A stretch of DNA of 64,000 bases from a virus: positions 1-64,000 of the IMG/VR virus record IMGVR_UViG_3300024346_000044. The stretch is one strand, 5' to 3'. Position numbers and translations under genes: made by a program. Each line of letters opens with the position of its first letter. Positions within the stretch are counted from its first letter, which is position 1. The notes under the pieces were generated by a model. The model did not search any database. It had not been told where the DNA came from and worked only from the letters and a program-made list of their open reading frames with translations. Below, piece after piece: positions 93-62,460 of the stretch.

Positions 93-371
93 ATGGCAAG
101 ACAAAGAAAAGAAGGTTATTTTTGTGAGACAAAAACAATTACGGTTGAAGACCTTGAATATGATTTAATTAGATTTGAAGGAGAAGATTCTTGGAAAATT
201 CACAATTGGGAAGGCCCAGCAGTAAGATCAACAGATGGAGTTAGAAAAAAATCAAGATATTATTTATATGGATTTGAATATGATAAAGAATTATACAGTG
301 AGTCTATAAAAGAAAGAGAAGGTCTTCCTTGGTATAAAAACCCAGCCATGAAAGGGGTTGAAAGATTTTAA
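93..371 (+). CDS. hypothetical protein (92 aa)
   Basis: ORF directly downstream of promoter motif; A-rich leader. Confidence 0.75.
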   Translation: MARQRKEGYFCETKTITVEDLEYDLIRFEGEDSWKIHNWEGPAVRSTDGVRKKSRYYLYGFEYDKELYSESIKEREGLPWYKNPAMKGVERF

Positions 372-372
372 T

Positions 373-912
373 ATGAAAATAGGATTTTGTGGTACAATGA
401 GTGTAGGCAAAACTACACTTGTTAATGCCTTAAAAGAATTAGAAGAATTTAAAGATTATAACTTTAGAACAGAGCGTTCTAAACATTTAATGTCAATGGG
501 TATTCCATTAAATACAGATTCAACATTAAAAGGTCAAACAATATTCTTATCAGAACGAGCAGCTGAGTTAATGCAGGATAATATTATAACAGATAGAACT
601 ATTATAGATGTTATGGCATTTGCCCAATGTTCGGATTCAATGAACTATCTAGAAAAAGATAAATTTACACAATTATCAGCTAGTTTAATACATGAATATG
701 ATTATATATTCTATGTTTCACCTGAAGGGGTGGGAATAGAAGATAATGGTGTAAGGGAAACAGATTCAAAATATAGAGAATTAATAGATTTTACTATTAA
801 TATGTTTTTAGATAGATATCAATATAGAATTAAAAATTTAATTAAAATTAAGGGTACTACAAAAGAACGTATTAAGACTATACAAGAAACACTTTCTCTG
901 CAATATGTATAA
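373..912 (+). CDS. P-loop nucleotide/nucleoside kinase (AAA_28/NadR-like)
   Basis: N-terminal Walker A GTMSVGKTT, ITDRT motif, YDYIFY, DNGVR; ATG 373 preferred over 358. Confidence 0.7.
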   Translation: MKIGFCGTMSVGKTTLVNALKELEEFKDYNFRTERSKHLMSMGIPLNTDSTLKGQTIFLSERAAELMQDNIITDRTIIDVMAFAQCSDSMNYLEKDKFTQLSASLIHEYDYIFYVSPEGVGIEDNGVRETDSKYRELIDFTINMFLDRYQYRIKNLIKIKGTTKERIKTIQETLSLQYV

Positions 913-3706: not shown

Positions 3707-3715
3707 TATTTATAA
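3706..3715 (+). promoter_or_regulatory. late-promoter-like motif ATATTTATAA (portal)
   Basis: One of 19 copies upstream of mostly structural genes. Confidence 0.65.
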
Positions 3716-3727
3716 ATAAATAATAAA

Positions 3728-5605: not shown

Positions 5606-5639
5606 GAATTCTTATATATTTATAAAAAAATAATCATTG

Positions 5640-8900: not shown

Positions 8901-8906
8901 GAAATT

Positions 8907-9509: not shown

Positions 9510-9513
9510 AACT

Positions 9514-9786: not shown

Positions 9787-9894
9787 AAAACTAATCAGTT
9801 TTATAGTTTTCCTCAAGCAATAACAACATACAAAAAAATTTAACTTGTTTCAACAATAGTTGCATTAACTCAATTATTAACTAAACTTTTAATC

Positions 9895-10122
9895 ATGGAA
9901 GAAATAATGAACAAAATAACAGGTTTTTTAGGCGGGATAACAACAATTCTATTATCCTTTGTATCACTAAGTATCTTAGCTGAAGTAATATTCGGGGTAG
10001 GAGTATTTGGTACCAGTGTAGTAGCCAATGTCATGGAGCTTATTAAAGCCCTAGGTGACGGAGGATTTGTTGGGGTCATAGCCCTAATTATTTTAATTCA
10101 ACTTTTTTCAAATAAAAAGTAG
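9895..10122 (+). CDS. small membrane protein (2 TM)
   Basis: Two hydrophobic segments in 75 aa; followed by a terminator. Confidence 0.65.
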   Translation: MEEIMNKITGFLGGITTILLSFVSLSILAEVIFGVGVFGTSVVANVMELIKALGDGGFVGVIALIILIQLFSNKK

Positions 10123-10146
10123 GAGTTAAGAGATAATTGCTAGCAC

Positions 10147-10179
10147 AAAAACCTAGGAAGAAATTTCTGGGTTTTTTTT
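10147..10179 (+). terminator. rho-independent terminator
   Basis: cctaggaa-gaaa-tttctggg hairpin (with G-U pairs) followed by T8, preceded by an A tract. Confidence 0.7.
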
Positions 10180-10310
10180 GACTTTAAATAATTTTCATAT
10201 ACGTATACTCGTAAATATGCCGTTTCTATACGGTATTAGACAAAATGTTTAATTACTATTACGTTTAACACAATAAACGTACTTTCCCAACAAAAATAAA
10301 TTTAGGAAGA

Positions 10311-11606: not shown

Positions 11607-11634
11607 ATTATAAATTAAAATTAAAACTTAAAAA

Positions 11635-13284: not shown

Positions 13285-13310
13285 GAGTAACTGTATAATT
13301 TTTAATAAAG

Positions 13311-13338
13311 AGAGGCGCTATTTGCGCCTCTTTTTTTT
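13311..13338 (+). terminator. rho-independent terminator after MCP
   Basis: agaggcgc-tattt-gcgcctct hairpin followed by a T run. Confidence 0.85.
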
Positions 13339-13378
13339 CCTTAAATATTTATAATCAATAAACAGTTTTTACAAATAT

Positions 13379-14107
13379 ATGGCATCAAAACCCCACACAG
13401 ATGAGATTTATAAGGAAAAAAGAATTCCTAAAAATCCAATTAAGTTTAAACTTCAACTAAATGAAGAACAAAAACTAGCAAAAGAAAAAATATTAAATAA
13501 TACTATTACTTTACTTGCTGGATCAGCGGGTTCAGGTAAAACGTTATTATCATGTCAAATAGCGTTAGATGGTCTATTTAGGAGAATTTATGATAAGGTA
13601 ATAATAACACGTCCAACAGTATCAAAAGAAGAAATTGGTTTTTTACCTGGTGATTTAAGAGAAAAAATGGATCCTTGGGTTCAACCTATCTACCAAAATA
13701 TGTTTTTACTTTATGATAAAGTTAAAGTAGAAAAATTCATTGAAGAAAGAAAAATATAAATTATACCTGTATCATTTATGAGAGGTAGAACATTTGTAGA
13801 TTCATGCATTATAGTAGATGAAGCACAAAACGTTACTCATGAACAAATGGAAATGATTATAACTAGAATAGGTAAAAGAAGTAAAATGATTATATGTGGA
13901 GATGACCACCAAGTTGATTTAAAAAATAAAGCAGATTCTGGATTTAGATTTATATATAAAGCAGCTTGCAAAATAAAAAAACTAGAATCTATTAAATTAC
14001 TTGAAAATCATAGAGATCCTATTGTAGAAGATTTAATTGAATATTATGAAGAAAAAATATTAGGTGGAATAAAATTAAAAACTTCCGGCTCTAAGGGAAG
14101 GAAGTAA
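13379..14107 (+). pseudogene. phoH: PhoH-family ATPase interrupted by an in-frame TAA at 13757-13759
   Basis: GSAGSGKT, ITRP, IGFLPGDLREKM, then KI*IIPVSFMRGRT, IVDEAQN, TRIG, GDDHQVD, HRDPIV; both ORF halves are in the same frame. Confidence 0.85.
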
Positions 14108-23400: not shown

Positions 23401-26400
23401 CAGCTACGGCTACAATATTAGAAACAGCTAGAAATATTAATGGTGTAAGTTTTAATGGTTCTGCAAATATTACAATAACAGCAGCAGGTTCTACACTATC
23501 AGACACAGTCCCAATATCAAAAGGAGGTACTGGAGCTACTAGTGCAGGTGCTGCAAGAACATCTTTAGGAGTAGATGCAGCAGGAACAGTTAATTATACA
23601 TTACCAACAGCAGCCGCAAATACATTAGGTGGTGTAAAAATTGGAAGTGGAATTTCAATATCAAGTGGTGTAATATCAGCAGATAATAATGGCACTATAA
23701 CAAGTGTTACAGGAACCGCACCTGTTGCTTCATCAGGAGGGACTACACCTGTTATTTCAATGGCAGCAGCGGATGATAGTACTAATGGATATTTAACTTC
23801 AACAGATTGGTCAACTTTTAATTCAAAAGGTAGTGGTGATGTAACAGAAGTAACTTCTGCAACAACAGACCAAATAACAGTAGCAAATAGCACGGGTCCA
23901 AACCCTGCTATTTCAGCAGTAACGGCAGCAATAGCAAATGCGGGAACAGGATTAGCAACAGCTGACCAAATTCATACCTTTGTAACTACTCAAACAGATG
24001 CAATAGCAGCAAATACATCAGGAACCGCTGCTTCTTTATCCTCTACTTTAATAACTGGAAGAGGGGGAACAGGATTAACTTCTATAGGAAGTGCATTACA
24101 AGTACTAAGAGTAAATGCCGCAGGAAATGCTTTAGAATATGCTACTTCAACAGTTGGTGATATTACTGAAGTTCAATCATCTACTACAAACCAACTTGTA
24201 GTAACAAACGGAGCAGGTCCAATACCATCATTAGCAATAACAACAGCAGCGATTGCAGACGCGGGAACAGGATTAGCAACAGCAGACCAAATTCATACTT
24301 TTGTAACTACTCAAACAGATGAAACAGCAGCCGATACATCTGGTAACGCGGCAACCTCAACAAAAATAGCAAGTATTACAAATTCTAACATTGTTCAATT
24401 AACTTCTACTCAAACATTAACAAATAAAACATTAACATCTCCAACAATTGGAGATACTAGTAATATTACATTCCCAACTTTTAATCAAAATACAACGGGT
24501 AATGCTGCAACAGCTACAACATTAGCAACCGCAAGAACTATTGCAGGTGTATCATTTGATGGATCCGCTAATATATCATTAAATAATAATTCAATTACAA
24601 ATGGTGCAGGATATACTACTAATACAGGTACATTAACTGGTAATGGCGCAACAAATAGAGTTCCGATCTATAATGGGACTACATCATTCACAACAGACTC
24701 AGGATTTACATATTCATCTGATATATTAAGTACAGAAAAATTAAATATAACAGCTATAGCAGCAACTGTATCCGAGAATACTACAATCATGATAGATGGC
24801 GATGGCCAAACATTGACCAGAGAATTAGGTTCAAATGCTTACAATTCAACGACAATCGGTACAAATACAAATGCATTAACAGTTGATAATGCAACAGTTC
24901 AATTAAATTCCGGAACTACATTTAATGGTAGTGCAGCAAGAACATTATCTGCAAAAACAGCAGCAATTGCAAATGGTGGGGCAGCATTAGCAACAGCAGA
25001 CCAGATTCATACATTTGTTACTACACAGACCGATGCTATAGATGCCGATACCTCAGGTAATGCGGCTACAGCTACTATATTAGCAACTGCAAGAACTATT
25101 GCAGGTGTATCATTCAACGGTTCAGCTAATATATCATTAAATAACAACGCAATAACTAATGGAGCAGGTTACACAACAAATGCTGGAACATTAACTGGTA
25201 ATGGTACAACAAATAGAGTTCCAATTTATAATGGAACAACTTCATTTACTACAGATAGTGGATTTACATATTCATCTAATATATTAAGTACAGAAAAATT
25301 AAATATAACAGCTATAGCAGCAACTGTATCCGAGAATACTACAATCATGATAGATGGCGATGGCCAAACATTGACCAGAGAATTAGGTTCAAACGCATTT
25401 AATAGTACAACAATCCCAACTAACAATAACCAATTAACAAACGGAGCTGGGTTTACAACAAATGCTGGAACATTAACTGGAAACGGTACATCAAATAGAG
25501 TTCCAATCTACAATGGAACAACTTCATTTACTACAGATAGTGGATTTACCTATACCGGTAACAAATTAACTGCAGAAGGATTAAATGTAACCGGCCCAAT
25601 ATCAGCATCCATAGGAGCTGCTCCTTACATGAAATTAGATCTGGAAAGACAACTTTTTGGTGACACTGACGGAAATTCTAATGGTGCAACATTTATGTTA
25701 GATCAGACCTTAGGTTTTATTGTAGGATCGCCGATTATATCTTTAGATGGTGCAGTGACAATTAATGACTCAAGCAACGATGTAGACTTTAGAGTTGAAT
25801 CTAACGGCAACGCTAATATGTTGTTTGTAGATGCTGGAAATAATAGAGTTGGTATAGGAACTAATAGTCCAACTGAAGCACTAGATGTCAATGGTGCTTT
25901 TACAGCTACAAGTGTTAGATCTACAAGCGGAGGAACGGATGGTGGTTTTATTTTAAAACAATGGGCAGGTAGTACTAGCTACGCTTTTTTAGGTACTAAT
26001 GGTATGTCAGGAGTAGAGTACTGCATGATATCAGATGGTACTAATACTTTCTTAGGCGCTGGGACAGGTGGAGCTTTAAAATTAAGAGGACCTGCTAATG
26101 ATTCTTCTCCAGAAGTAATTATTAATGGAACTATAGTAGAAGTTAATACTGGTGATCTAAAAGTAACTGATGGATCTATAGCTGTAGGTAATATAACTAA
26201 TTCTACTACAGATGGTAGAATAGACGCTTCAAATGACGTTGTAGCTTTTTCATCATCAGATAAAAAATTAAAAGAAAATATTAAACCAATTAAAAATGCA
26301 TTAGATAAAGTATCTCAAATTTCAGGTGTTGAATTTGATTGGAAAGAATTAACTGAAGAAGAAAAATTATCTATACACGGGAATGAAGGGCATGATGTAG

Positions 26401-26558
26401 GAGTAATAGCACAAGAAATTGAAAAAGTATTACCTGAAGTAGTTCAAACTAGAGATAACGGTTATAAAGCAGTTAAATATGAAAAAATAGTTCCATTATT
26501 AATAGAATCAATAAAAGAATTAAAAGCCGAAATAGAAGAACTTAAAAAATCTAAATAA
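20496..26558 (+). CDS. long tail fibre with repeat modules and C-terminal intramolecular chaperone (peptidase S74)
   Basis: Thr/Ala/Gly-rich repeats; VGIGTNSP; C-terminal SSDKKLKENI..GVIAQEIEKVLPEVV..YEKIVPLLIESIKEL. Confidence 0.9.
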   Translation: MPNWKKVIVSGSDAILSNITASGNISASGDVTASGFLGEFIGNLTGNADTATILATSRNINGVPFNGSSAITVPAAGSTLTDTVPISKGGTNLTSLGSALQVLRVNAAGNGLEYSTSTVGDITSVLGGTGITVTDSSGPSPSVAIDSTVVTLTGAQELTNKDLTGASNTFPTFNQSTTGNAATATILQTSRTIGGVSFNGSANISLPGVNSTGNQDTSGTAASLSATLITGRGGTGLSSIGTSGQILSVNGAGNALEYITPTVGDITAIQTTTGDQMVITNGNGPIPSLAITTATIADAGTGLATADQIHTFVTTQTDETAADTSGNASTSTKIASITNANIVQLAATQELTNKDLTGAGNTFPTFNQSTTGNAATATTLQTARNINGVSFNGSAAITITAAGSTLSDTVPISKGGTNLTSVGTAGQILSVNGAGNALEYITPTVGDITAIETTTGDQIAITNGNGPIPSLAITTAAIANGGTGLATADQIHTFVTTQTDETAANTSGNAATSTKISSITNSNIVQLSSTQALTNKDLTGAGNTFPTFNQNTTGNAATATTLETSRNINGVAFNGSAAITVPAAGSTLTDTVTVAKGGTNLTSLGSAGQVLSVNGAGNALEYTTPTTGDVTEVTSATTDQITVANSTGPNPAISAVTGVIANGETSLATADQIHTFVTTQTDATAADTSGNAATATNVAYTGLTGTVPTWNQNTSGTAASLSSVLITGRGGTGLNSIGTAGQVLTVNAAGNGLEYATSTTGDITGVTAGTGLTGGGTSGNVTLNIDSTVATLTGTQTLTNKTLTSPTIGDTSNITFPTFNQNTTGNAATATLADSATVLATPRAINGVNFDGSAAITITAAGSTLSDTVPISKGGTNLTSVGTAGQILSVNGAGNALEYITPTVGDITAIQTTTGDQIAITNGNGPIPSLAITTATIADAGTGLATADQIHTFVTTQTDATAADTSGNAATATILETARNINGVSFNGSANITITAAGSTLSDTVPISKGGTGATSAGAARTSLGVDAAGTVNYTLPTAAANTLGGVKIGSGISISSGVISADNNGTITSVTGTAPVASSGGTTPVISMAAADDSTNGYLTSTDWSTFNSKGSGDVTEVTSATTDQITVANSTGPNPAISAVTAAIANAGTGLATADQIHTFVTTQTDAIAANTSGTAASLSSTLITGRGGTGLTSIGSALQVLRVNAAGNALEYATSTVGDITEVQSSTTNQLVVTNGAGPIPSLAITTAAIADAGTGLATADQIHTFVTTQTDETAADTSGNAATSTKIASITNSNIVQLTSTQTLTNKTLTSPTIGDTSNITFPTFNQNTTGNAATATTLATARTIAGVSFDGSANISLNNNSITNGAGYTTNTGTLTGNGATNRVPIYNGTTSFTTDSGFTYSSDILSTEKLNITAIAATVSENTTIMIDGDGQTLTRELGSNAYNSTTIGTNTNALTVDNATVQLNSGTTFNGSAARTLSAKTAAIANGGAALATADQIHTFVTTQTDAIDADTSGNAATATILATARTIAGVSFNGSANISLNNNAITNGAGYTTNAGTLTGNGTTNRVPIYNGTTSFTTDSGFTYSSNILSTEKLNITAIAATVSENTTIMIDGDGQTLTRELGSNAFNSTTIPTNNNQLTNGAGFTTNAGTLTGNGTSNRVPIYNGTTSFTTDSGFTYTGNKLTAEGLNVTGPISASIGAAPYMKLDLERQLFGDTDGNSNGATFMLDQTLGFIVGSPIISLDGAVTINDSSNDVDFRVESNGNANMLFVDAGNNRVGIGTNSPTEALDVNGAFTATSVRSTSGGTDGGFILKQWAGSTSYAFLGTNGMSGVEYCMISDGTNTFLGAGTGGALKLRGPANDSSPEVIINGTIVEVNTGDLKVTDGSIAVGNITNSTTDGRIDASNDVVAFSSSDKKLKENIKPIKNALDKVSQISGVEFDWKELTEEEKLSIHGNEGHDVGVIAQEIEKVLPEVVQTRDNGYKAVKYEKIVPLLIESIKELKAEIEELKKSK
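20990..25100 (+). repeat. shuffled internal repeat modules of the long fibre
   Basis: ATADQIHTFVTTQTD x7, TFPTFNQxTTGNAATAT x5, plus AAGSTLxDTVP and VNxAGNALEY modules; boundaries approximate. Confidence 0.85.
24721..25393 (+). repeat. identical ~115 bp direct repeat in the fibre gene
   Basis: atatattaagtacagaaaaa...gaattaggttcaaa at 24721-24835 and 25279-25393. Confidence 0.85.
25565..25882 (+). repeat. 318 bp segment duplicated at 29411-29728 (copy 1)
   Basis: Manual alignment, ungapped, about 17 mismatches. Confidence 0.9.
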
Positions 26559-45333: not shown

Positions 45334-46593
45334 ATGTTTTGGTTAGTTGAGACAGAGGATCAATTAGATAGGTTATACGAAAGCAATTTTAAGGAGGCAT
45401 TTATTGAAATAATCCCTTATGATTATAGAGAACACCCATGTCAAAGCCAAATTTGTGCGGTTTATATTAGACCTTTAGAATCAACAAAAGGATTTATTAT
45501 ACCTTACAACCATAGCGAAACATTTAAAATAGACATAAATAAAGCAGAAAAAATAATAGAGAAATTTGATAAGATATACGTTAGAGATAAGAAAGAATTT
45601 TTACATTACTACCCAATTCAAACTCTTTTCGACATTACTTTACATTGTCCTACATATATACCAGAACAAACACCGACTCATTATCATTTTCACAAAAATA
45701 ATCAAAACGCCTATAACGCGAGTATATTAATTCCAATCGTTAAGCACTATGAGTATTGTGAAAAAATTTTTAATAACATTAAATCGCATATAAATGACCA
45801 AATCAATGAATTTTACAACAACGACGCCACAATGGTGTTCAACGCTATCGAAAGAAATGGAATACGAATTAATAGAAGAGAATTTGAAAAGAACTTTCAC
45901 GTACCAAATTCCGATTTCGTATTTACACAATTTAACTTCAAAACCCTCACAAGAAGACCCTCAAATAAATTTAAAAAAGTAAATTATGCCGCGCTCAAAA
46001 AAGATAATGGTGAAAGAAAATCTTTCATTCCCAATAATGACCTTTTTGTGGAATTGGATATTAGTGCTTATCATCCTACCCTTTTGGCTCATTTGGTACA
46101 TTACAAGTTTAATACTGATGACATTCATGAAGCTTTTAGTAAGATGTATGGTGTTGACTACAAAACAGCAAAAGAAATTACTTTTAAACAGCTTTACGGA
46201 GGAATTTTTAAAGAATACAAAGAACTAGAGTTTTTTAAAAAGGTTCAAAAATATATAGATGAACTGTGGCAAAAGTTCCAAAGCGATGGTTACATTGAAG
46301 TACCGATATCAAAATGGAAATTTAAAAAAGATGAACTGGAAAATATGAATCCGCAAAAACTGTTAAATTACTTACTTCAAGGCTTGGAGACCGCAATGAA
46401 TGTTCGTATATTGTGGGAAATAATGAAGGTGTTAAAAGGTAAGAATACAAAAGTTGTATTATATACTTATGATAGTTTCTTATTTGACCTCGATAAGAGT
46501 GAAAAAGATACGTTTAATTTAATTTTAAAAATATTTGAAAAATACAAACTAACAACAAAAATGAACTATGGAACAGACTATGATTTTAGATAA
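45334..46593 (+). CDS. divergent, compact family-A nucleotide polymerase
   Basis: TLTRRPS, motif A ELDISAYHP, motif B AKEITFKQLYGG, NYLLQG, motif C LYTYDSFLFD. Confidence 0.75.
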   Translation: MFWLVETEDQLDRLYESNFKEAFIEIIPYDYREHPCQSQICAVYIRPLESTKGFIIPYNHSETFKIDINKAEKIIEKFDKIYVRDKKEFLHYYPIQTLFDITLHCPTYIPEQTPTHYHFHKNNQNAYNASILIPIVKHYEYCEKIFNNIKSHINDQINEFYNNDATMVFNAIERNGIRINRREFEKNFHVPNSDFVFTQFNFKTLTRRPSNKFKKVNYAALKKDNGERKSFIPNNDLFVELDISAYHPTLLAHLVHYKFNTDDIHEAFSKMYGVDYKTAKEITFKQLYGGIFKEYKELEFFKKVQKYIDELWQKFQSDGYIEVPISKWKFKKDELENMNPQKLLNYLLQGLETAMNVRILWEIMKVLKGKNTKVVLYTYDSFLFDLDKSEKDTFNLILKIFEKYKLTTKMNYGTDYDFR

Positions 46594-51408: not shown

Positions 51409-52395
51409 ATGACAAAAAGAAACCTAACCCAAGAGAGAGTAGTATACAAACCCTTTGAATACCCTCAAGCAGCAGATTATTGGTTAAAACAACACCAAGC
51501 ACATTGGATTCACACAGAAGTGCCAATGATGTCTGATATAAATGATTGGAAGCAGAATTTAAATAAAACCGAAAAAAATATTATTGGTTCTATTTTAAAA
51601 GGATTTGCTCAAACTGAAACAGTTGTTAATGATTATTGGACAGGATTAGTTACAAAATGGTTTCGAAAACCTGAAATAATTGCAATGGCTACTACTTTTG
51701 GAGCTATGGAGACTATACATGCTGAAGCTTATTCTTTACTTAATGAAGAATTAGGTTTAGATGATTTTAGTGAATTTTTAGAAGATAAAACTACAATGGC
51801 TAAAATTGAAACATTAATGAATGTTAGAGATAGTTTTAATGGTGAAGTAAATTGGCATGAAAGAGCCAAATCATTAGCTATATTTTCAGCATTTACAGAA
51901 GGAGTAAATTTATTTTCATCATTTGCTATTTTGCTCTCATTTAAAATGAGAAATAAACTTAAAGGAGTAGGTCAAATAGTAGAATGGAGTATAAGAGATG
52001 AATCTATGCACTCCGAAGCTGGATGTTGGTTATTTAAAACACTAATAGAGGAAAACCCCCATTTAAACACCCCAGAATTAGAAGCAGCAATAAATGAAGC
52101 AGCTTTATTATCATTACAATTAGAGATTGATTTTATAGAAAAAGTATACGAGTTAGGTGATTTAGAGGGATGTTCTAAATATGATTTAATTAATTTTATT
52201 AAAAATAGAGTTAATACAAAATTAGGAGATTTAGGGTATAATCCTATAGTAGGAGATGTAGATCTAACAGCAGTAAGTAATATGAAGTGGTTTGATGCTT
52301 TAAGTGCAGGAAAACAACATACAGATTTCTTTGCAAACAGAGTAACAAATTATAGTAAAGGACATTTAGAGTGGGATGCCTCGTCAATTTTTTAA
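51409..52395 (+). CDS. nrdB: ribonucleotide reductase class I beta subunit
   Basis: ETIHAEAYS, EGVNLFSSF, RDESMH, DFFANRVTNYSK. Confidence 0.95.
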   Translation: MTKRNLTQERVVYKPFEYPQAADYWLKQHQAHWIHTEVPMMSDINDWKQNLNKTEKNIIGSILKGFAQTETVVNDYWTGLVTKWFRKPEIIAMATTFGAMETIHAEAYSLLNEELGLDDFSEFLEDKTTMAKIETLMNVRDSFNGEVNWHERAKSLAIFSAFTEGVNLFSSFAILLSFKMRNKLKGVGQIVEWSIRDESMHSEAGCWLFKTLIEENPHLNTPELEAAINEAALLSLQLEIDFIEKVYELGDLEGCSKYDLINFIKNRVNTKLGDLGYNPIVGDVDLTAVSNMKWFDALSAGKQHTDFFANRVTNYSKGHLEWDASSIF

Positions 52396-52398
52396 ATT

Positions 52399-54108
52399 AT
52401 GGATAATAACTTAGTAGCAGATACAACAAAATGGGAAAAGGGTAAAGATTACCCTGAATGGATGAATGACGTAGCCTTATCTACAATCTCAAAAGGTTAT
52501 TTATTGCCAAATGAAACACCTAAAAAGGCATATCGTAGAGTAGCAAACTCTGTAGCAACAAGATTAGGTAGACCTGATTTAGAAAGTAAGTTTTTTAAAT
52601 ACATCTGGAATGGTTGGATTGGTTTAGCTTCTCCTGTTTTATCAAACACAGGCACAGATAGAGGATTACCAATTTCATGTTTTGGTGTTGATACCCCGGA
52701 TTCAATTAGAGGAATTGGACTAACTAATGCAGAATTAATGAAACTTACTTCACAAGGTGGTGGAGTAGGTATTTCATTATCAAGAATTAGAGAAAGAGGT
52801 TCAACTATTAAAGGAAATGGAAAATCAGAAGGAGTAGTTCCATGGGCTAAAATATATGATTCAACTATAATAGCTACAAACCAAGGAAGTGTACGAAGAG
52901 GAGCGGCTAGTGTTAATTTAGATATTAACCACCCTGATATTGGTGAATATCTTCAAATTAGAAGACCAAAAGGTGATCCCAATAGACAATGTTTAAACTT
53001 ACACCAATGTGTGGTAGTAGATGATGCCTTTATGAGAAGGTTAAATGATAGAGACCCAGAATCAATGAATCTTTGGATGCAAATTTTAAAATCAAGAGTT
53101 GAAACTGGAGAACCTTACATAATGTTTAAAGATAATGTTAATAAGGATAATCCAATGGCTTATTTAATGAATAATCTAGATGTGTCAATGACCAATATTT
53201 GTTCAGAAATTACATTACATACAGATGAAGAACATAGTTTTATATGTTGTTTATCAAGTTTAAATTTAGCTAAATACGATGAATGGAAAGATACAGATGT
53301 AGTTGAAACCGCTATTTATTTTCTTGATGGTATAATGGAAGAATTTATTCAAAAAACTAATGGTAAAGAATCAATGATTAGAACCCACAGACATGCTAAA
53401 AAAGGTAGAGCATTAGGTTTAGGTGTAATGGGGTGGCATACGTTTTTACAAAAGAAAAATCTACCATTTAATTCTATTGCATCAACTGCCTGGACTCATA
53501 CGGTATTTTCACAAATAAAATTAAAAGCAGAAACTGCATCTCGTGAATTAGCAGAAGAATATGGAGAACCTTTATGGTGTAAAGGAACAGGTATGAGAAA
53601 TACTCATTTATTGGCGGTAGCACCAACAGTATCTAATTCTAGAATATCGGGATGCTCAGCAGGAATAGAACCACAACCCGCAAATGTTTATACATTTAAT
53701 GGAGCTAAAGGTACATTTATAGTTAAAAACCCAGAATTAGTAAAAAAACTAAAAGAAAATGATCATGATACTGAAAAGGTATGGGATTCAATTTTAGTTG
53801 ATAATGGTTCAGTACAGAATCTATCAAATAATATACTAAGCGAATCTGATAAAGAAGTATTTTTAACATTTTCAGAAGTAAATCAATTAGGTTTAATTCA
53901 ACAAGCAGCTATTAGACAAAAATATATAGATCAAACCCAATCATTAAATTTATGTTTTGATCCAACAGATTCTCCAAAGTGGATAAATCAAGTACACTTA
54001 GAGGCATGGAAATTAGGCATCAAAACACTATACTATTTACGAACTGACTCAGTTATTAAAGGAGATTTAGGATCCCGTGTAGCAGATTGTATTTCTTGTG
54101 AAGGGTAG
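52399..54108 (+). CDS. nrdA: ribonucleotide reductase class I alpha subunit (no ATP cone)
   Basis: PISCF, GGGVG, RRGA, TNICSE, CCLSS, APTVS, KTLYYLR, CISCEG. Confidence 0.95.
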   Translation: MDNNLVADTTKWEKGKDYPEWMNDVALSTISKGYLLPNETPKKAYRRVANSVATRLGRPDLESKFFKYIWNGWIGLASPVLSNTGTDRGLPISCFGVDTPDSIRGIGLTNAELMKLTSQGGGVGISLSRIRERGSTIKGNGKSEGVVPWAKIYDSTIIATNQGSVRRGAASVNLDINHPDIGEYLQIRRPKGDPNRQCLNLHQCVVVDDAFMRRLNDRDPESMNLWMQILKSRVETGEPYIMFKDNVNKDNPMAYLMNNLDVSMTNICSEITLHTDEEHSFICCLSSLNLAKYDEWKDTDVVETAIYFLDGIMEEFIQKTNGKESMIRTHRHAKKGRALGLGVMGWHTFLQKKNLPFNSIASTAWTHTVFSQIKLKAETASRELAEEYGEPLWCKGTGMRNTHLLAVAPTVSNSRISGCSAGIEPQPANVYTFNGAKGTFIVKNPELVKKLKENDHDTEKVWDSILVDNGSVQNLSNNILSESDKEVFLTFSEVNQLGLIQQAAIRQKYIDQTQSLNLCFDPTDSPKWINQVHLEAWKLGIKTLYYLRTDSVIKGDLGSRVADCISCEG

Positions 54109-57195: not shown

Positions 57196-57227
57196 TTTGG
57201 CTTCCTAAATAAGGGTTCGTATATTTA
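57196..57227 (+). promoter_or_regulatory. host-type promoter of the deazaguanine operon
   Basis: TTTG-N20-TATATTTA with TTCG extension, 4 nt before ATG 57232. Confidence 0.65.
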
Positions 57228-57231
57228 CTAC

Positions 57232-57753
57232 ATGGATAAATTGAGAACCCAATACATTTTCAACATAGACAAAGAACACGTTACACAAGAGATATCAAAA
57301 TTACAACCACTTAATTATAACCAATTTAGATGGTGGAGACGATTTGATTCACCAAATAAACCCCTTCATAAAAATTCAGATTTATTAGATAAAATTCAAA
57401 ATGGGGACTTTGATTTTTCACATTATTTTTGGCAGGCAAAATATACAGAAATGGAAATGGATGAAATTCATAATGAGGTCTGGCCTGACTCAGTTAAATA
57501 TAAGGAAAAAACTTCAATCCATGGTGCCCGAAGACAACGTTTATGGGCTGACTTTGAAAAAGACGAACAAGAAAAACTCAATAGCATATATAAAGAATTT
57601 CCTCTTTCTATTAGAATGACTCGTAAACAAGTAAGAGAAGGAATAGAAGAATTTGGAGGTACGCTAGAGGATTATTATCATTACTGTAAAGATAAGTTTG
57701 GAGCAAGACACAAACGATTAGAAACAAGAGGAAGACCAAGAAAAGTTATATGA
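57232..57753 (+). CDS. hypothetical protein, first gene of the que operon
   Basis: YNQFRWWRRF, KIQNGDF; overlaps the next gene (ATGA). Confidence 0.7.
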   Translation: MDKLRTQYIFNIDKEHVTQEISKLQPLNYNQFRWWRRFDSPNKPLHKNSDLLDKIQNGDFDFSHYFWQAKYTEMEMDEIHNEVWPDSVKYKEKTSIHGARRQRLWADFEKDEQEKLNSIYKEFPLSIRMTRKQVREGIEEFGGTLEDYYHYCKDKFGARHKRLETRGRPRKVI

Positions 57754-58544
57754 AAGTATCACACGAAGCACCAATACCCTATATGAAACAAGTTAGGGGA
57801 TTAATTGATTATGATTATTGTCTCCCCCATATGTTAGATGAAAATGAAGATTATGTAAAATATTTTCAAGAATCTAAAGAAATGGGGCGGTATATTATTA
57901 TGGATAACTCCTTACATGAGTTAGGACATCCATATGATAAAGAACGTTTGGCACATTGGCTATATTATTTCAAACCAGATGAGTTTATAGTACCTGATTA
58001 TTGGCAAGATAAAACAGCAACGTTAGTATCAGCTAAAGAATGGATTAATAAAATATATCCTGAAAATACTACTCCTATGGCTGTAGTACAAGGTAAAAAT
58101 AAAAATGAATCCAGAGAATGTTATGATATATTAAAACATCAAGGATATCAAAAAATAGCATTTAGTTATGGAGCTGATTGGTATTATGAAAATGGAAAAT
58201 CTACTTCTAAAACCACAGAAAATATAACAGTAACTAAAGCCCATGGCCGGTATAATTTTATAAAAGAATTATATGAGGATAATACAATATCAAAATCAGA
58301 CAGAATACATTTATTAGGTTGCAATATACCCCAGGAATTTAAATGGTATAAAAATATGCCATTTATAAAAACAATAGATACATCAAACCCAGTTATACAT
58401 GGTTTATCAGGAATAAAATATGAACCCTGGGGGTTAAATAACAAAATATCTACTAAGGTAGATAAATTTAAAGGAGAAGCTGAGCATTGGGAAACAGCAA
58501 TTTACAATATACAATTATTTAAAACATTTATACCAAAAACATGA
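57750..58544 (+). CDS. TGT-fold protein, DpdA-like deazaguanine transglycosylase candidate
   Basis: IIMDNS, IVPD, AVVQG, IHLLG, IDTS motifs in TGT order; coupled to queC. Confidence 0.65.
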   Translation: MKVSHEAPIPYMKQVRGLIDYDYCLPHMLDENEDYVKYFQESKEMGRYIIMDNSLHELGHPYDKERLAHWLYYFKPDEFIVPDYWQDKTATLVSAKEWINKIYPENTTPMAVVQGKNKNESRECYDILKHQGYQKIAFSYGADWYYENGKSTSKTTENITVTKAHGRYNFIKELYEDNTISKSDRIHLLGCNIPQEFKWYKNMPFIKTIDTSNPVIHGLSGIKYEPWGLNNKISTKVDKFKGEAEHWETAIYNIQLFKTFIPKT

Positions 58545-59407
58545 AACAAGCAGTATTAAGTTTAAGTGGTGGGATGGATAGTAGTACACTATTACTTCAC
58601 TTATTAGCAAACGATTATAAAGTAACAGCTCTAAGTTTTGATTATGGTCAAAAACATAGAGTTGAATTAGAAAGAGCACAACAATTAGTAGATTATTTAA
58701 ATGATAATGGTCAAGATATCACATATCAATCTATTAAATTAGATGGTTTAACATCATTATTAGATTCAGCTTTAGTAGAAGGTGGGGATGATGTGCCCGA
58801 AGGACATTATGAAGAAGATAATATGAAAGCAACAGTAGTGCCTAATAGAAATAAAATATTCTCATCACTAATACAATCTGTAGCGTTATCAATCGCTAAT
58901 AAAACAGAATCATCGGTAAAAATAGCAATGGGTATACATGCTGGGGATCATGCAATTTACCCTGATTGTAGACAAGAATTTAGAGATGCGGATTATAAAG
59001 CATTTGCTGAAGGTAATTGGGATGCTCAAAGAGTAGGATTATACACACCTTATTTAGATGGAGATAAATTTGATATTTTAAAAGATGGAGAAGTATGTTG
59101 TAAAGAATTAGGAATTGATTTTGATGAAGTTTATAAAAGAACAAATACATCATACAAACCTGTTTTTATACCTCACCCTTGGTCTGATACTGGAGGAGGA
59201 AATTGGTATTCAGATTACAAATCGGCATCATCAGTAGAAAGAATAGAAGCATTTTTAAAATTAGGAAGACCTGACCCTGTGGTATATGCTGATGAAACAG
59301 GAGTTGTAGGTTATGAAATTGCAAAATCTCATGTTCAAAAATTATTGGATGAGTATGCAAATAATCCTAATATGAATGATACCATTGATATGGTAAATAA
59401 TATGTAA
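58541..59407 (+). CDS. queC: 7-cyano-7-deazaguanine synthase
   Basis: SLSGGMDS, FDYGQKH, VPNRN, HAGD, YPDCR. Confidence 0.93.
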   Translation: MKQAVLSLSGGMDSSTLLLHLLANDYKVTALSFDYGQKHRVELERAQQLVDYLNDNGQDITYQSIKLDGLTSLLDSALVEGGDDVPEGHYEEDNMKATVVPNRNKIFSSLIQSVALSIANKTESSVKIAMGIHAGDHAIYPDCRQEFRDADYKAFAEGNWDAQRVGLYTPYLDGDKFDILKDGEVCCKELGIDFDEVYKRTNTSYKPVFIPHPWSDTGGGNWYSDYKSASSVERIEAFLKLGRPDPVVYADETGVVGYEIAKSHVQKLLDEYANNPNMNDTIDMVNNM

Positions 59408-59408
59408 T

Positions 59409-59564
59409 ATGAAACAACCAGACGCAAAAAAACATCAATTAGTAAGTTTTATTAAATCAAGTATAAGAATATTAGGTTATTGTTTTATACCATTTAGTTT
59501 AGTAACTGCTATGCTTATTTTAGTAGCTAGTGAAGCAATAGGTATAGTAGAAGAATTAGTTTAA
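59409..59564 (+). CDS. small membrane protein (51 aa), not in the ORF track
   Basis: MKQPDAKKHQLVSFIKSSIRILGYCFIPFSLVTAMLILVASEAIGIVEELV; fills the gap between queC and thioredoxin. Confidence 0.65.
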   Translation: MKQPDAKKHQLVSFIKSSIRILGYCFIPFSLVTAMLILVASEAIGIVEELV

Positions 59565-59580
59565 AATAAAATAAGTAAAA

Positions 59581-59850
59581 ATGAAAGTACAAGTTAAAAA
59601 AGGAATATTATATTTTACAGCTCCATGGTGTGGACCTTGTAAACAATTAGGACCTAAAATGGAACAATTAGAAAATAGTGGGGTTCCTATTAAAAAAATA
59701 AATACAGATTATGAAGCTACTTTAGTTACACAATATGCTATAAAATCTGTTCCAACTTTAGTCATAACTGATTTAGATGGAAATGAAATAAAAAGAATAC
59801 AAGGTGGTGGAAAATCACTTCAACAATTAAAAGACTGGTATAATGGGTAA
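59581..59850 (+). CDS. thioredoxin
   Basis: FTAPWCGPCK, IKSVPT. Confidence 0.9.
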   Translation: MKVQVKKGILYFTAPWCGPCKQLGPKMEQLENSGVPIKKINTDYEATLVTQYAIKSVPTLVITDLDGNEIKRIQGGGKSLQQLKDWYNG

Positions 59851-60307
59851 ATTTCAATCAAGTAAAGTTTTTGACGGATTTAGTACAGTATTCCGTCAAT
59901 GGAAGGCAGAAGATACACACTGTAAATTTTTACATGGGTATGGTATTTCATTTAAAGTATATTTTGAAGGTGAATTAGATGAAAAAAATTGGGTATGGGA
60001 TTTTGGTGGTATGAAAAGAGCTAAAACACTTATAGAAGGTAAACAACCTAAAGAATGGATGGATTATATGTTTGACCATACTGTTATAATAGCAGAAGAT
60101 GATCCTGGAATGGGTGGTTGGAAAACAATGGATGGGATAGGAGTAATTCAATTAAGAGTAATACCAGCTACAGGAGCAGAAAAATTTTCAGAGTTTATAT
60201 TTAATAAGTTAAATGACTTTGTCCATACAGAAACTGAAGGTAGAGTAAGAGTTACTAAAGTTAAGTTTATGGAACACGGTAAAAACGCAGCTTATTATTG
60301 TGAATAA
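59843..60307 (+). CDS. queD: 6-carboxy-5,6,7,8-tetrahydropterin synthase
   Basis: HCKFLHGY, WVWDFG, FDH, GAE, FMEH; que context. Confidence 0.88.
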   Translation: MGKFQSSKVFDGFSTVFRQWKAEDTHCKFLHGYGISFKVYFEGELDEKNWVWDFGGMKRAKTLIEGKQPKEWMDYMFDHTVIIAEDDPGMGGWKTMDGIGVIQLRVIPATGAEKFSEFIFNKLNDFVHTETEGRVRVTKVKFMEHGKNAAYYCE

Positions 60308-60313
60308 TTTTAT

Positions 60314-60384
60314 TATCGGGTCGTCTAGAGGCAGGACAATGGTTTTTGGTACCATGAACGGAGGTTCGAATCCTTCCCCGATAA
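60314..60384 (+). tRNA. tRNA-Gln(TTG)
   Basis: Acceptor tatcggg/cccgata, anticodon arm atggt-ttTTGgt-accat, T loop ttcgaat; no CCA encoded. Confidence 0.88.
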
Positions 60385-60397
60385 CGATAAAACCAAA

Positions 60398-60471
<74 letters not shown>

Positions 60472-60476
60472 TTAAT

Positions 60477-60548
60477 GCTCCGTTCGTCTAGGGGTTAGGA
60501 CATATGGTTTTCATCCATAAAACAGGGGTTCGATTCCCCTACGGAGTA
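60477..60548 (+). tRNA. tRNA-Glu(TTC)
   Basis: Acceptor gctccgt/acggagt, anticodon arm tatgg-ttTTCat-ccata, T arm agggg-ttcgatt-cccct. Confidence 0.9.
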
Positions 60549-60572
60549 CAGTAAATAATAAATGAAAAATAA

Positions 60573-61343
60573 ATGAAAAGAATAGAAGATTATAACAAAG
60601 TGTTACCAGTATTAGAATTATACAGATGTGTTCAAAGTGAAGGTAGCAGATTTGGTAGACCAACTATTGCGGTTAGAACTACAGGATGTACTCATAGATG
60701 TTATTTTGGAGATGGGGGTTGGTGTGATTCTTGGTATACAAGTATACACCCAGAAAAAGGTACATTTACCTTTAATGATATTATTAAAATATATGATGAC
60801 AACCCCCATGTAAAAGAAATGATGCTTACTGGTGGTTCGCCTACAATGCATCCTGCTTTAGTAAATGAAATAACACATTTTGCAAATGAAAGAAACATTT
60901 TGGTTACAATTGAGACAGAAGGTTCTCATTTTCTTGAAACAGACCATCCTTTGGATCTTATTAGCCTTAGTCCTAAATTTAGTAATAGTGTGCCTGTACT
61001 TGGCGCTGTTACACCTAATGGGGCTGTCGCCGATGAACGAATGATTAAAGTGCATAATAGACTTAGATTAAATAAAGAAGCTATTAGTAAAACAATTGCA
61101 TACCATAAAGATTATCACTTCAAACCCGTATGGGATGGTACAGATGAAAATCTAAAAGAAATTGAGGCATTTAGGGTAGATATGGAAATACCCAAAGATA
61201 AAACTTATATAATGCCTGCTGGGGATACAAGAGAAACATTAGTAAAAATGTATCCTTTAGTATTTGAATTGTGTGCTGAAAAGGGATATAATATGACAGG
61301 CAGAGACCACATCATTGCATTTGATACAGAAAGAGGTGTCTAA
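60573..61343 (+). CDS. queE: 7-carboxy-7-deazaguanine synthase (radical SAM)
   Basis: VQSEG, GCTHRC(x7)CDS, LTGGSP, IETEG, SLSPK. Confidence 0.9.
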   Translation: MKRIEDYNKVLPVLELYRCVQSEGSRFGRPTIAVRTTGCTHRCYFGDGGWCDSWYTSIHPEKGTFTFNDIIKIYDDNPHVKEMMLTGGSPTMHPALVNEITHFANERNILVTIETEGSHFLETDHPLDLISLSPKFSNSVPVLGAVTPNGAVADERMIKVHNRLRLNKEAISKTIAYHKDYHFKPVWDGTDENLKEIEAFRVDMEIPKDKTYIMPAGDTRETLVKMYPLVFELCAEKGYNMTGRDHIIAFDTERGV

Positions 61344-61470
61344 AGAAGAAGCATTAGAAATATTAGAAGAAGTAAAAGAAAATGTTAATACATGCTGTGC
61401 TATAACTATGGAACCAGATGAAGTATTAGATTTAATAGAAAAATTAGAAGAATACATACAAAATGCGTAA
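61336..61470 (+). CDS. small acidic protein (44 aa), not in the ORF track
   Basis: GTG start; SKEEALEILEEVKENVNTCCAITMEPDEVLDLIEKLEEYIQNA; overlaps both neighbours. Confidence 0.55.
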   Translation: MSKEEALEILEEVKENVNTCCAITMEPDEVLDLIEKLEEYIQNA

Positions 61471-62038
61471 AATAAAAATAACATTAGTTTTAATCCTTAG
61501 TAGTATTATAACTTATAGTCAAATTATAAAAACAGATATTTTTACAGTTAATTATTCTGAAAAATATGAACAACCCCTATGGTTAGAATATACAATACAA
61601 TGTCCAAATGGACATGCTGAAAGAACAGGTATGAATTTTTGGACCCCTAAAGGAATAAAAACATCAGATGATGCAGATTATAAAGATAACATCTATGATA
61701 AAGGTCATTTAGCACCTGCGGCAGCATTTAACTGTGATAAAGAAACATTACTTAAAACGTTTTCATATTTAAATTCAGCTTTACAACATGAAGGATTAAA
61801 TAGAGGACAATGGGCAAGATTAGAATCATTTGAAAGAAGTTTAGCTAACTTTTTTGAACAAGAAGTTAAGGTAAGGGTAGATGTTTTATTTGAAGGTAAC
61901 TTAAAGAAAGTAAAAGGTGGAGCTACTATACCTAGTGGTTTTAAAAAAACAATAATAATGGGAGATATAACCAAAGTATTTGAATTTCCTAATAAAAATA
62001 CAACAGGTACAAACTGGATAGAATATTTAATAAAATGA
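61463..62038 (+). CDS. secreted DNA/RNA non-specific endonuclease (NucA/EndA family)
   Basis: Signal peptide ending YSQ; YDKGHLAPAA, TFSYLN, LNRGQWARLE, IPSGFKK. Confidence 0.88.
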   Translation: MRKIKITLVLILSSIITYSQIIKTDIFTVNYSEKYEQPLWLEYTIQCPNGHAERTGMNFWTPKGIKTSDDADYKDNIYDKGHLAPAAAFNCDKETLLKTFSYLNSALQHEGLNRGQWARLESFERSLANFFEQEVKVRVDVLFEGNLKKVKGGATIPSGFKKTIIMGDITKVFEFPNKNTTGTNWIEYLIK

Positions 62039-62460
62039 AAAAAATAATAATAGATTGGGACCAAATAGATAAGCTAATATCCAGACTATCATATCGGATT
62101 GAAGTTAGTGATGATAAATTTGAAAATATATATGGTTTACAAAGAGGTGGTTTAATACCAGCTGTAATGTTATCTCATAAATTAGGAATGCCTATGACTA
62201 AAGGAGATATTGGCCCCAATACTTTAATAGTTGATGATATTTGTGATAGCGGAGAAACCTTAGACAAATTAGTAAATAAATATCAAACATTATATTCTTA
62301 TCCTTTTAACCTTAAAACAGCAGTTTTACATTATAAACCCCATACTTCATGTTTTAAACCTACTTTATATGCTAAAAAATGGGATAATTCAAACTGGATA
62401 GAATACCCCTGGGAGAGAGAAGATTCAAAAGCTATACAAGATTACAAGGTAAATATTTAA
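62035..62460 (+). CDS. type I phosphoribosyltransferase (Gpt/Hpt-like)
   Basis: GLQRGGLIPA, LIVDDICDSGETL PRPP loop, WIEYPWE. Confidence 0.88.
   Translation: MKKIIIDWDQIDKLISRLSYRIEVSDDKFENIYGLQRGGLIPAVMLSHKLGMPMTKGDIGPNTLIVDDICDSGETLDKLVNKYQTLYSYPFNLKTAVLHYKPHTSCFKPTLYAKKWDNSNWIEYPWEREDSKAIQDYKVNI

Follow-up and report, generated by a model that had tools for sequence, protein, structure and literature searches.

A predicted DpdA3-type DNA-modification module and its accessory genes in an uncultured marine T4-like phage

To our knowledge, replacement of all guanine with a 7-deazaguanine has been described solely in phages encoding the transglycosylase DpdA3. DpdA3 was defined from phiST, immuto and Campylobacter phages by Cui et al. 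(2023, PMC10516641). According to the main text of that paper, the deoxyguanosine (dG) peak is absent from phiST and immuto DNA and immuto DNA carries fdPreQ1; full replacement with dADG is cited there for CP220. In this study, we examined a candidate locus of the same kind at positions 57232-62460 of IMG/VR virus record IMGVR_UViG_3300024346_000044, using the first 64,000 bases (hereafter, the window) of a viral contig of 72,293 bases with a G+C content of 31%. We read the locus, with moderate confidence, as a DpdA3-type DNA-modification module in which guanine would be exchanged at the level of DNA and salvaged by a phosphoribosyltransferase (PRTase).

Pfam recognised T4-type structural proteins (terminase, portal, prohead protease, Gp23 capsid, sheath and tube) and a replication set (gp32-like, UvsX/RecA-like, helicase and class I ribonucleotide reductase (RNR)) in the window. 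The source is an uncultured marine T4-like myovirus, its host is probably a flavobacterium, and the contig looks incomplete. The locus consists of ten open reading frames (ORFs) and three tRNAs, which run head to tail on the + strand with several stop/start codon overlaps. Its gene order and content were as given in a preliminary description of this DNA when compared with the ORFs and with the Pfam, PHROGs and ARAGORN results, except that the small ORF after queE, described as 44 aa, is listed as 51 aa from a TTG codon. In order, the features of the block and of the adjoining part of the contig are:

57196..57226, + strand: promoter-like site in the 41-base gap 5' of hyp173
57232..57753, + strand: hyp173, an ORF with no family match
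57750..58544, + strand: putative DpdA3-subfamily guanine transglycosylase homologue, 264 aa, with a 4-base overlap with hyp173
58541..59407, + strand: QueC homologue (PP-loop ATPase, preQ0 synthase type; Pfam QueC E 2e-37)
59409..59564, + strand: TM51, a hydrophobic 51-aa membrane ORF (ORF list; no Pfam match)
59581..59850, + strand: thioredoxin (WCGPC; Pfam E 7e-16), overlapping the QueD start
59843..60307, + strand: QueD (6-carboxytetrahydropterin synthase type; Pfam PTPS E 1e-13; phrog_2389 E 3e-38)
60314..60549, + strand: tRNA-Gln(ttg), tRNA-Ala(tgc) and tRNA-Glu(ttc) (ARAGORN; Rfam tRNA 57-64 bits)
60573..61343, + strand: QueE (7-carboxy-7-deazaguanine synthase type, radical SAM; phrog_2076 E 7e-49)
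61315..61470, + strand: orf51, a small acidic ORF (ORF list; no Pfam match)
61463..62038, + strand: Endonuclease_NS non-specific nuclease (Pfam E 3e-25)
62035..62460, + strand: small Gpt-like (6-oxopurine type) PRTase (Pfam Pribosyltran E 2e-8)
contig 64222-64989, outside the window: FolE (PF01227 E 1.6e-42), 1.8 kb past the PRTase
contig 64993-65643, outside the window: PRA-PH/MazG-like nucleotide pyrophosphohydrolase

DpdA3, FolE, QueD and QueE are common to this contig and the DpdA3 phages of Cui et al. (2023, PMC10516641), and immuto further shares a zinc-less QueC, a short PRTase (51% identity), the PRA-PH/MazG-like gene (73%) and an AAA_28 kinase (27%). In contrast to immuto, neither QueF nor the formyltransferase (DpdN) was seen on the 72-kb contig, and the predicted product is preQ0/ADG rather than fdPreQ1. 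Moreover, hyp173 stands in place of whatever precedes DpdA3 in the cultured phages, the three tRNAs and the nuclease are inserted relative to them, and the polymerase is a split family-B enzyme, whereas the cultured DpdA3 phages have PolA or DnaE. By itself the locus adds no new chemistry and is ordinary for its kind; its accessory gene set is undiscussed in the literature examined. The titles and opening abstract lines of papers on 7-deazaguanine, phosphoribosyltransferase and phage contained no treatment of a PRTase in phage clusters. The words 'phosphoribosyl' and 'kinase' occur 0 times in the main text of PMC10516641, whose supplementary tables could name such genes.

The DpdA3-type transglycosylase and predicted preQ0 synthesis

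When the 264-aa protein was compared with 50,697 phage records by tblastn, 26 records matched, assigned to Campylobacter (14), Bacillus (6), Flavobacterium (4), Chryseobacterium (1) and Weizmannia (1). The best match was the 'DNA guanine transglycosylase' of the Flavobacterium phage immuto (37% identity, E 6e-46); gp056 of CP220 was also 37% identical (E 5e-40), and both matches extended over 98% of the length. A profile built from 24 relatives detected phiST DpdA3 (CGPG_00065) with an E value of 2.4e-36 and the solved bacterial DpdA 7ui4 with an E value of 0.004. The AlphaFold2 (AF2) model of the protein (pLDDT 93.9) had 7ui4 as its best Foldseek match (E 4e-7), and VIA fold alignment gave Z scores of 18.1 with the archaeosine tRNA-guanine transglycosylase (TGT) 1iq8 and 17.9 with 7ui4 over 233-234 of the 264 residues. 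Residues D52, E57, D83, Q114, R167, H187, L189, G190, E196 and D210 are invariant in the 24 sequences, and L188 in the HLLG stretch is nearly so. We take the invariant acidic residues to have counterparts in the TGT residue numbering.

Thus, the barrel is that of bacterial DpdA (the DNA preQ0 insertase 7ui4; 233 residues aligned) and of the TGTs, with the acidic residues and the HLLG and [ST]ID[ST] motifs (HLLG and IDTSNP in the alignment with 7ui4) in register. In contrast to these enzymes, the window protein has 264 residues against 413 in 7ui4, lacks the zinc subdomain, is 15-17% identical and gives no Pfam TGT match; unlike for bacterial DpdA, no DpdB-like partner was recognised in the phage locus. 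QueC, QueD and QueE are encoded in the same block and FolE follows downstream. Taken together, the tblastn, profile and fold comparisons place the protein, on sequence and model evidence, in the DpdA3 subfamily. This answers the question of DpdA subfamily that had been named for checking, and bears out the preliminary reading of a 7-deazaguanine operon with a divergent TGT or DpdA. Because this placement matches the phages of Cui et al., the core of the locus is a new case of the published kind.

Several DpdA3-like genes were observed under other names. In Brevundimonas phage vB_BpoS-StAshley (ON529865.1), QueE and the DNA polymerase flank a DpdA3-like protein of 266 aa that is annotated as 'hypothetical protein' (6975-7775 of the stretch examined; hhalign 96.9%, E 1.6e-10; profile E 7.7e-10), and since it carries this gene, StAshley is predicted to have a 7-deazaguanine in its DNA. 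The Pfam TGT model found nothing in the Brevundimonas, BUCT-ZZ01 and faecal-phage records; the DpdA3 profile later caught the Brevundimonas gene. DpdA3-like genes with 23-25% identity are also found in Bacillus phage BSTP12 (4896-5684) and Chryseobacterium phage MA9V-3 (8947-9741; both positions refer to the stretches examined). These are annotated as 'NadR trifunctional protein' or hypothetical, and both lie among que genes; in BSTP12 the gene is immediately 5' of DNA polymerase I.

Pfam scans covered 68 chosen + strand ORFs, of which 61 are in the window (most of those of at least 80 aa) and 7 are in the contig tail (the ORFs of at least 80 aa among the 10 there). FolE, QueD, QueE and QueC would together form preQ0. 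No QueF, formyltransferase, methyltransferase or amidotransferase was seen in these 68 ORFs; hence, as far as this seemingly incomplete contig goes, the product is predicted to be dPreQ0 or dADG. The preliminary description had noted that folE and queF are missing from the window. The folE gene is indeed outside it, but lies on the same contig, and the scans of these 68 ORFs showed no queF.

QueE scored 28.7 bits against the Pfam Radical_SAM cut-off of 29.5 and matched TIGR03365 with an E value of 1e-14, under the cut-off; the queD-queE region has 72% nucleotide identity with immuto. QueC has the PP-loop ATP motif SLSGGMDSS at its N-terminus and scored 129 bits with Pfam QueC (cut-off 22) and 127.9 bits with the NCBIfam equivalog TIGR00364, under the cut-off of 150.3. 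Its zinc site is missing: the window clade has Y, Y, S and S where six other QueCs have four Cys (C, C, C, C), so that TSY...SDYKSASSVER replaces the SCY..C..C..C..R of CP220, Brevundimonas and other QueCs. A C-terminal extension is also present, and alignments to solved QueCs end at residue 157. The immuto QueC is the same zinc-less variant. Because immuto shares it and fdPreQ1 needs preQ0, the zinc-less form is probably active.

Two sets of related loci were compared. The first, anchored on DpdA3, comprises the 80 closest viral loci, 31 of which have at least 6 kb downstream of DpdA3 and are called well-covered here; QueC, QueD and QueE are present in all 31 (31/31). The second, anchored on the PRTase, is described below.

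The three tRNAs inside the block could alternatively be explained if these genes served to boost queuosine in host or phage tRNA instead of modifying DNA. The Q-family tRNAs are those for Asn, Asp, His and Tyr, and the Gln, Ala and Glu tRNAs of the window lie outside that family. Q-boosting is raised by Hutinet et al. (2019) for phages without DpdA, but here DpdA3 is present, and the DNA of relatives that share this core is fully modified according to the main text of PMC10516641. We therefore find this explanation barely credible.

The ORF directly 5' of the DpdA3 gene, hyp173, is present at that position in 67 of the 80 DpdA3-anchored loci. The protein is basic (isoelectric point (pI) 9.0 in the window and 8.2-9.6 across 12 sequences, versus 4.8-7.7 in 23 of 24 DpdA3s), and it ends in the AT-hook-like sequence RGRPRK, with RGRP[KR]K at the end of most copies. 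LNYNQFRWWR and ARRKRLxxDFEKDE are conserved. Its AF2 model consists of helices (pLDDT 87) and found no counterpart in the PDB (best Foldseek E 1.7; best Z 6.7 in the wide VIA search, to generic helices), and a protein atlas gave no lead (scores 0.75-0.77). Neither hyp173 nor the TGT-like ORF, TM51 or orf51 matched anything in Pfam, PHROGs or NCBIfam. A complex prediction of DpdA3 with hyp173 (score 0.00, mark 0.32) informs neither way. A possible counterpart, immuto gp208, showed no similarity and is the MazG-like gene. On the simplest reading of its charge and tail, hyp173 would be a DNA-tethering helper of DpdA3.

Thioredoxin occurs in 50/80 DpdA3-anchored loci (28/31 well-covered) and TM51, placed between QueC and thioredoxin, in 36/80 (25/31). 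Together with hyp173, these genes are near-core in the window's clade. The nuclease (10/80; 4/31 well-covered) is an optional passenger of the cluster, and orf51 was found in 11/80 DpdA3-anchored loci, 9/31 well-covered ones and 15/80 PRTase-anchored ones. The N-terminus of the nuclease is hydrophobic and resembles a signal peptide (MRKIKITLVLILSSIITYSQ), which is odd for an enzyme degrading host DNA inside the cell.

The phosphoribosyltransferase and its substrate

A relative of the PRTase was found in 13 of the 50,697 phage records: nine DpdA3 phages (immuto and phiST groups), two Brevundimonas phages, one cyanophage and one unannotated faecal phage. In the four immuto records the order is QueE, two ORFs, PRTase and FolE; in the five phiST-group records the PRTase lies 20 kb away from the que genes. 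The two Brevundimonas phages have a deoxynucleoside monophosphate kinase, FolE and the PRTase in a row, and also the DpdA3-like gene, and the Synechococcus cyanophage BUCT-ZZ01 (ON615601.1) has QueE, PRTase, one other gene, QueD and FolE. The PRTase-anchored set consists of the best 80 of 433 confirmed IMG/VR loci, which were searched by tblastn with the window proteins and many of which end near the PRTase. FolE was found within 10 kb in 55 of these 80, QueE in 38, QueD in 35, a MazG-like gene in 31, QueC in 30 and DpdA3 in 26.

The linkage of the PRTase to que genes is real. It had been named for checking in the preliminary description, and it was observed both on viral contigs (FolE in 55/80) and in cultured phages whose hosts belong to three phyla; the alternative that PRTase and que genes are unlinked fails. 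Adjacency to FolE or QueE, as for PRTases of the TubE/ToyH type, thus characterises these 55 viral loci and also two Streptomyces clusters. Nevertheless, the PRTase is an optional accessory of DpdA3: it is present in 18 of the 80 DpdA3-anchored loci and 13 of the 31 well-covered ones, and CP220 has no PF00156 match at all.

The best solved relatives of the PRTase are 1vdm (P. horikoshii purine PRTase, E 9e-14), Sulfolobus GpT-1/2 and E. coli XGPRT. It shares with these the RGG loop, the VDDxxD[ST]G motif including the third Asp, and a C-terminal W...PWE. Unlike them, it lacks a hairpin: alignments to the solved structures are broken by about 22 missing residues (counted against 1vdm), and the window and immuto proteins are without about 29 residues, a hairpin with a flexible loop, that the phiST, Brevundimonas and cyanophage homologues have. 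The flexible catalytic loop expected of a 6-oxopurine PRTase is accordingly absent from the window and immuto forms. The tail EREDSKxIQDYK is conserved in the phage proteins and differs from xanthine-guanine PRTases, and the NCBIfam xanthine PRTase model NF006613 gave 49.2 bits, below its cut-off of 138. In a metagenomic library, 1559 of 1567 candidates matched the short form with E <= 0.001, and the 120 relatives listed are 130-179 aa long and 59-100% identical. Hairpin-less short PRTases with 37-44% identity were also seen on contigs that are assigned to a Patescibacteria bin, a Methanosarcinales bin and a Prochlorococcus single-cell genome.

R37-G38-G39, D67 and W121 are invariant both in the alignment with cellular and Streptomyces PRTases and in a 42-row alignment; D68 is invariant in the former and nearly so in the latter. 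We take these elements to act as the RGG loop, the Asp of the phosphoribosyl pyrophosphate (PRPP) motif and the aromatic base-stacking residue. Asp71, the third Asp of VDDICDSG, is conserved in 90% or more of the 42 aligned members and is Asp in all 20 phage and metagenome rows shown. VDDxxD[ST]G is found in five cultured-phage PRTases and in the cellular ones shown, except that Prochlorococcus has E.

When 185,579 species genomes were scanned with the alignment of phage PRTases, 130 relatives were retrieved. Three close ones lie on contigs of Bacteroidetes or Flavobacteriales bins, and two are in Streptomyces. Among 80 cellular PRTase loci, que-gene content was read at the two Streptomyces loci, both of which encode a LuxR regulator, a QueE-like radical-SAM protein, FolE, the PRTase, thymidylate-kinase-like proteins, a DegT aminotransferase and a HAD hydrolase; by gene content, they look like uncharacterised 7-deazapurine nucleoside clusters. 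In these clusters (about 2900-14000 of the stretches), the QueE-like gene has a long N-terminal extension and there are two thymidylate-kinase-like genes each. One cluster also has a SAICAR-synthetase-like gene, and the other has a methyltransferase and a second radical-SAM gene.

In contrast to the phage proteins, all of which have Asp among those seen, both Streptomyces FolE-linked PRTases read VDDI[VA]GSG, with Gly at the third-Asp position, and keep the long loop. This Gly signature is our own observation on two Streptomyces sequences, without a published definition, and TubE and ToyH are not among the aligned rows. The third Asp presumably contacts N7 of the purine, which is absent in 7-deazaguanines. 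Because the phage proteins keep this Asp and the Streptomyces ones have Gly, we infer that the phage PRTase is an enzyme for guanine (or xanthine/hypoxanthine). We read it, from its sequence, as a probable guanine-salvage enzyme feeding GTP to FolE and not as a preQ0 nucleotide synthase.

The preliminary description had proposed the opposite, namely that the PRTase acts on preQ0 and starts a chain through RNR and a kinase to an unusual PolA. In such a scheme, preQ0 (or 7-carboxy-7-deazaguanine (CDG) or ADG) would react with PRPP as in TubE/ToyH, and kinases, the thioredoxin-dependent RNR and the polymerase would carry the nucleotide into DNA. The RNR and the P-loop kinase-like gene are present in the window:

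358..912, + strand: AAA_28 P-loop kinase-like protein (Pfam AAA_28 E 1e-12; phrog_2107 'thymidylate kinase' E 3e-23)
51409-52395, + strand: class I RNR small subunit (Pfam Ribonuc_red_sm E 3e-64)
52399-54108, + strand: class I RNR large subunit, 569 aa (Ribonuc_red_lgC E 9e-107; NF006577 655.7 bits, above the cut-off)

The putative PolA at 45334-46593 could not be supported: its Pfam match is sub-threshold (E 1.6e-4, 21.2 bits versus 34.3) and it has no PHROG. The precedent for the first step is genuine. TubE, a PF00156 PRTase, joins CDG to PRPP specifically in vitro, as described in PMC6112128, and toyocamycin/tubercidin clusters carry a PF00156 gene next to preQ0/CDG genes, as stated in a 2026 preprint. 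The phage PRTase belongs to the same superfamily and has FolE/QueE-like neighbours as in the TubE/ToyH type, with FolE-PRTase adjacency in the two Streptomyces clusters as well, and thioredoxin is near-core. BUCT-ZZ01, with FolE, QueD, QueE and PRTase, and no QueC, TGT, DpdA or DpdA3 found in the whole record, has what resembles a tubercidin core. On the other hand, the PRTase is absent from 18 of the 31 well-covered DpdA3 clusters and from CP220, whose DNA is cited in PMC10516641 as fully modified; Asp71 is kept where both Streptomyces proteins have Gly; and the phage PRTases are no closer to the Streptomyces ones (27% identity in the genome scan, 32-33% in the alignment) than to those of other genomes (28-44% in the scan). 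Furthermore, DpdA3 is present and would be redundant. The chain from PRTase through RNR and kinase to PolA is thus not upheld, and incorporation by way of a PRTase acting on preQ0 appears unlikely.

In the stretch of BUCT-ZZ01 examined (5081-12015), FolE is followed by two glycosyltransferase-like genes. The two large hypothetical genes 3' of FolE were considered as DpdA3 candidates; one is glycosyltransferase-like and the other gave no DpdA3 match. It is conceivable that CDG becomes a nucleotide or a sugar-linked product in this phage.

Possible base exchange on DNA or in the nucleotide pool

Of the 31 well-covered DpdA3 clusters, 24 carry a MazG-like gene. The kinase-like protein at 358-912 matched immuto gp203 (BLASTP E 2e-15) and CP220 gp057 (E 3e-17). 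In phiST the order is FolE, MazG (PF03819), one other gene, AAA_18, DpdA3, one other gene and DNA polymerase; in CP220 it is an HD+AAA_33 fusion, DpdA3 and AAA_28; and in immuto it is PRA-PH/MazG-like, one other gene, DpdA3, one other gene, formyltransferase and AAA_28. AAA_18 is immediately 5' of the DpdA3-like gene of MA9V-3, and a DNA polymerase adjoins the DpdA3-like gene in the Brevundimonas and Bacillus phages. Unrelated phages thus show a common pattern: non-orthologous genes for a nucleotide hydrolase and a small P-loop kinase-like protein recur beside DpdA3.

The replicative enzyme of the window phage is the split family-B polymerase. It is encoded outside the window, at contig 65636-68626, by two ORFs (588 and 312 aa) that correspond to the initial and final portions of phrog_262 and are separated by an 86-aa ORF without a family (3636-5402, 5396-5656 and 5688-6626 in the downstream stretch).

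By analogy, these neighbourhoods would fit a T4-like or Z-genome-like logic, in which the normal deoxynucleoside triphosphate (dNTP) is drained and a modified one is made. In this alternative, DpdA3 would swap the base on a free deoxynucleotide; the MazG-like or HD hydrolase would convert dGTP to dGMP and drain dGTP, the P-loop kinase would re-phosphorylate the product, the phage polymerase would build G-free DNA and the PRTase would recycle guanine. DpdA3 would then be not a DNA insertase but the first TGT-fold enzyme acting on free deoxyguanine nucleotides, within a closed pre-replicative cycle, a proposal that we advance only tentatively. If true, the dGTP pool would be emptied and filled with 7-deaza-dGTP, which would explain why only DpdA3 phages replace every guanine.

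This alternative draws on the repetition of non-orthologous hydrolase and kinase neighbours across the phiST, CP220, immuto and MA9V-3 lineages, on the frequency of the MazG-like gene, on the polymerase adjoining the DpdA3-like genes of Brevundimonas and Bacillus phages and on the bare, mostly acidic barrel of DpdA3. According to published accounts, replacement is complete in DpdA3 phages and the ADG nucleoside form was seen in infected cells; an earlier proposal, given by Hutinet et al. (2019) with reference to Crippen et al., was a route through modified dGTP. However, all characterised TGT/DpdA relatives act on a polynucleotide, and, among solved folds, that of the DNA insertase DpdA comes closest. 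Large phages commonly carry MazG-like genes and kinases, and the AAA_28 kinase family also occurs in 89 Streptomyces phage records (no que genes were near it in the one region viewed). In addition, hyp173 has a tail of the DNA-binding type, and the window kinase lies 57 kb from DpdA3. The adjacent P-loop proteins would equally fit an enzyme acting at the DNA level, because bacterial DpdA requires the ATPase partner DpdB (PMC10164549). The later view in the literature is 'post-replication', on the ground that DpdA is found in every such phage (main text of PMC10516641). Pre-replicative substitution had been the central suggestion of the preliminary description; in the form of a PRTase/PolA chain it does not stand, but the wider idea, with DpdA3 acting on the nucleotide pool, is kept as a possible, if doubtful, explanation. 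The remaining probability falls to some other explanation.

The explanation that we prefer is exchange on DNA with guanine salvage. FolE, QueD, QueE and the zinc-less QueC would convert GTP to preQ0, and DpdA3 would exchange guanine in DNA for a preQ0-type base. In virion DNA, dPreQ0 (or dADG) would then substitute for most or all dG, and this DNA would resist restriction. In the window's clade, the basic, AT-hook-tailed hyp173 would likely help DpdA3 on DNA. The PRTase would re-capture free guanine, released by the exchange or derived from degraded host nucleic acid, as GMP, which would be re-phosphorylated to GTP and returned to the adjacent FolE. FolE uses up GTP, and one guanine is set free per base exchanged; such salvage would hence close the loop at the cost of one PRPP.

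Several points weigh against this explanation. The contact of the third Asp with N7, on which the purine specificity of the PRTase turns, is presumed from work on HGPRT/XGPRT. The assignment of the Streptomyces PRTases to deazapurines comes from gene content alone, and TubE, of the same superfamily, does use CDG in vitro. Type I PRTases cover the active site with a closing loop that the window PRTase is missing, so ordinary catalysis by it is not assured. Guanine-excision salvage cannot explain BUCT-ZZ01, because that phage has the PRTase with QueE, QueD and FolE but no detectable DpdA or QueC. DpdA3 itself is small, lacks the zinc subdomain and is mostly acidic (pI 4.8-7.7 in 23/24), and hyp173 was not found in five cultured records (immuto, CP220, phiST, a Brevundimonas phage and BUCT-ZZ01). 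Finally, the authors of PMC10516641 state in its main text that their tests of DpdA3 in E. coli, the only assays of it reported so far, were unsuccessful.

Other features of the contig and biological significance

The preliminary description had also placed a host-type promoter before hyp173. We presumed a Bacteroidetes-type pattern of TTTG, 19-21 bases and TAnnTTT, which gave 23 sites against 15.8 +/- 3.8 in shuffled sequences, a total not clearly above the shuffles; a sigma-70 pattern gave 37 against 33.6 +/- 6.1. Of the Bacteroidetes-type matches, 4 in the 64 kb are on the + strand, and one of these is at 57196-57226 (TTTG, 20 bases, TATATTT), which is a 9-of-12 sigma-70-like match too. The site therefore holds as a consensus match only, with counts not clearly above chance. 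An Rfam search found no riboswitch or other RNA upstream; the three tRNAs were the sole RNA matches.

Elsewhere in the window, PhoH is divided between two adjacent + strand ORFs, 13379-13759 and 13778-14107, which match positions 6-105 and 113-205 of PF02562; possible explanations are a frameshift, a split gene and a small insertion. A 2020-aa ORF at 20496-26558 has a C-terminal Peptidase_S74 intramolecular chaperone domain (E 9e-18) and is presumably a giant tail fibre.

The comparison of about 160 related viral loci yields a parts list for DpdA3 clusters: a FolE-paired Gpt-like PRTase, a MazG-like hydrolase, P-loop kinase-like neighbours, thioredoxin, a small membrane ORF, an AT-hook protein and a zinc-less QueC. 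With this list, the question of pre- versus post-replicative modification becomes directly testable by enzyme assay. DpdA3 relatives are encoded in at least 581 of 598 pattern-matched IMG/VR stretches, and parts of the window sequence are present in 20 runs from 16 studies, all labelled as marine, seawater or brine metagenomes. Given this abundance, many marine flavobacterial phages may have G-free DNA. If they do, this would bear on the evasion of restriction and CRISPR and on sequencing bias.

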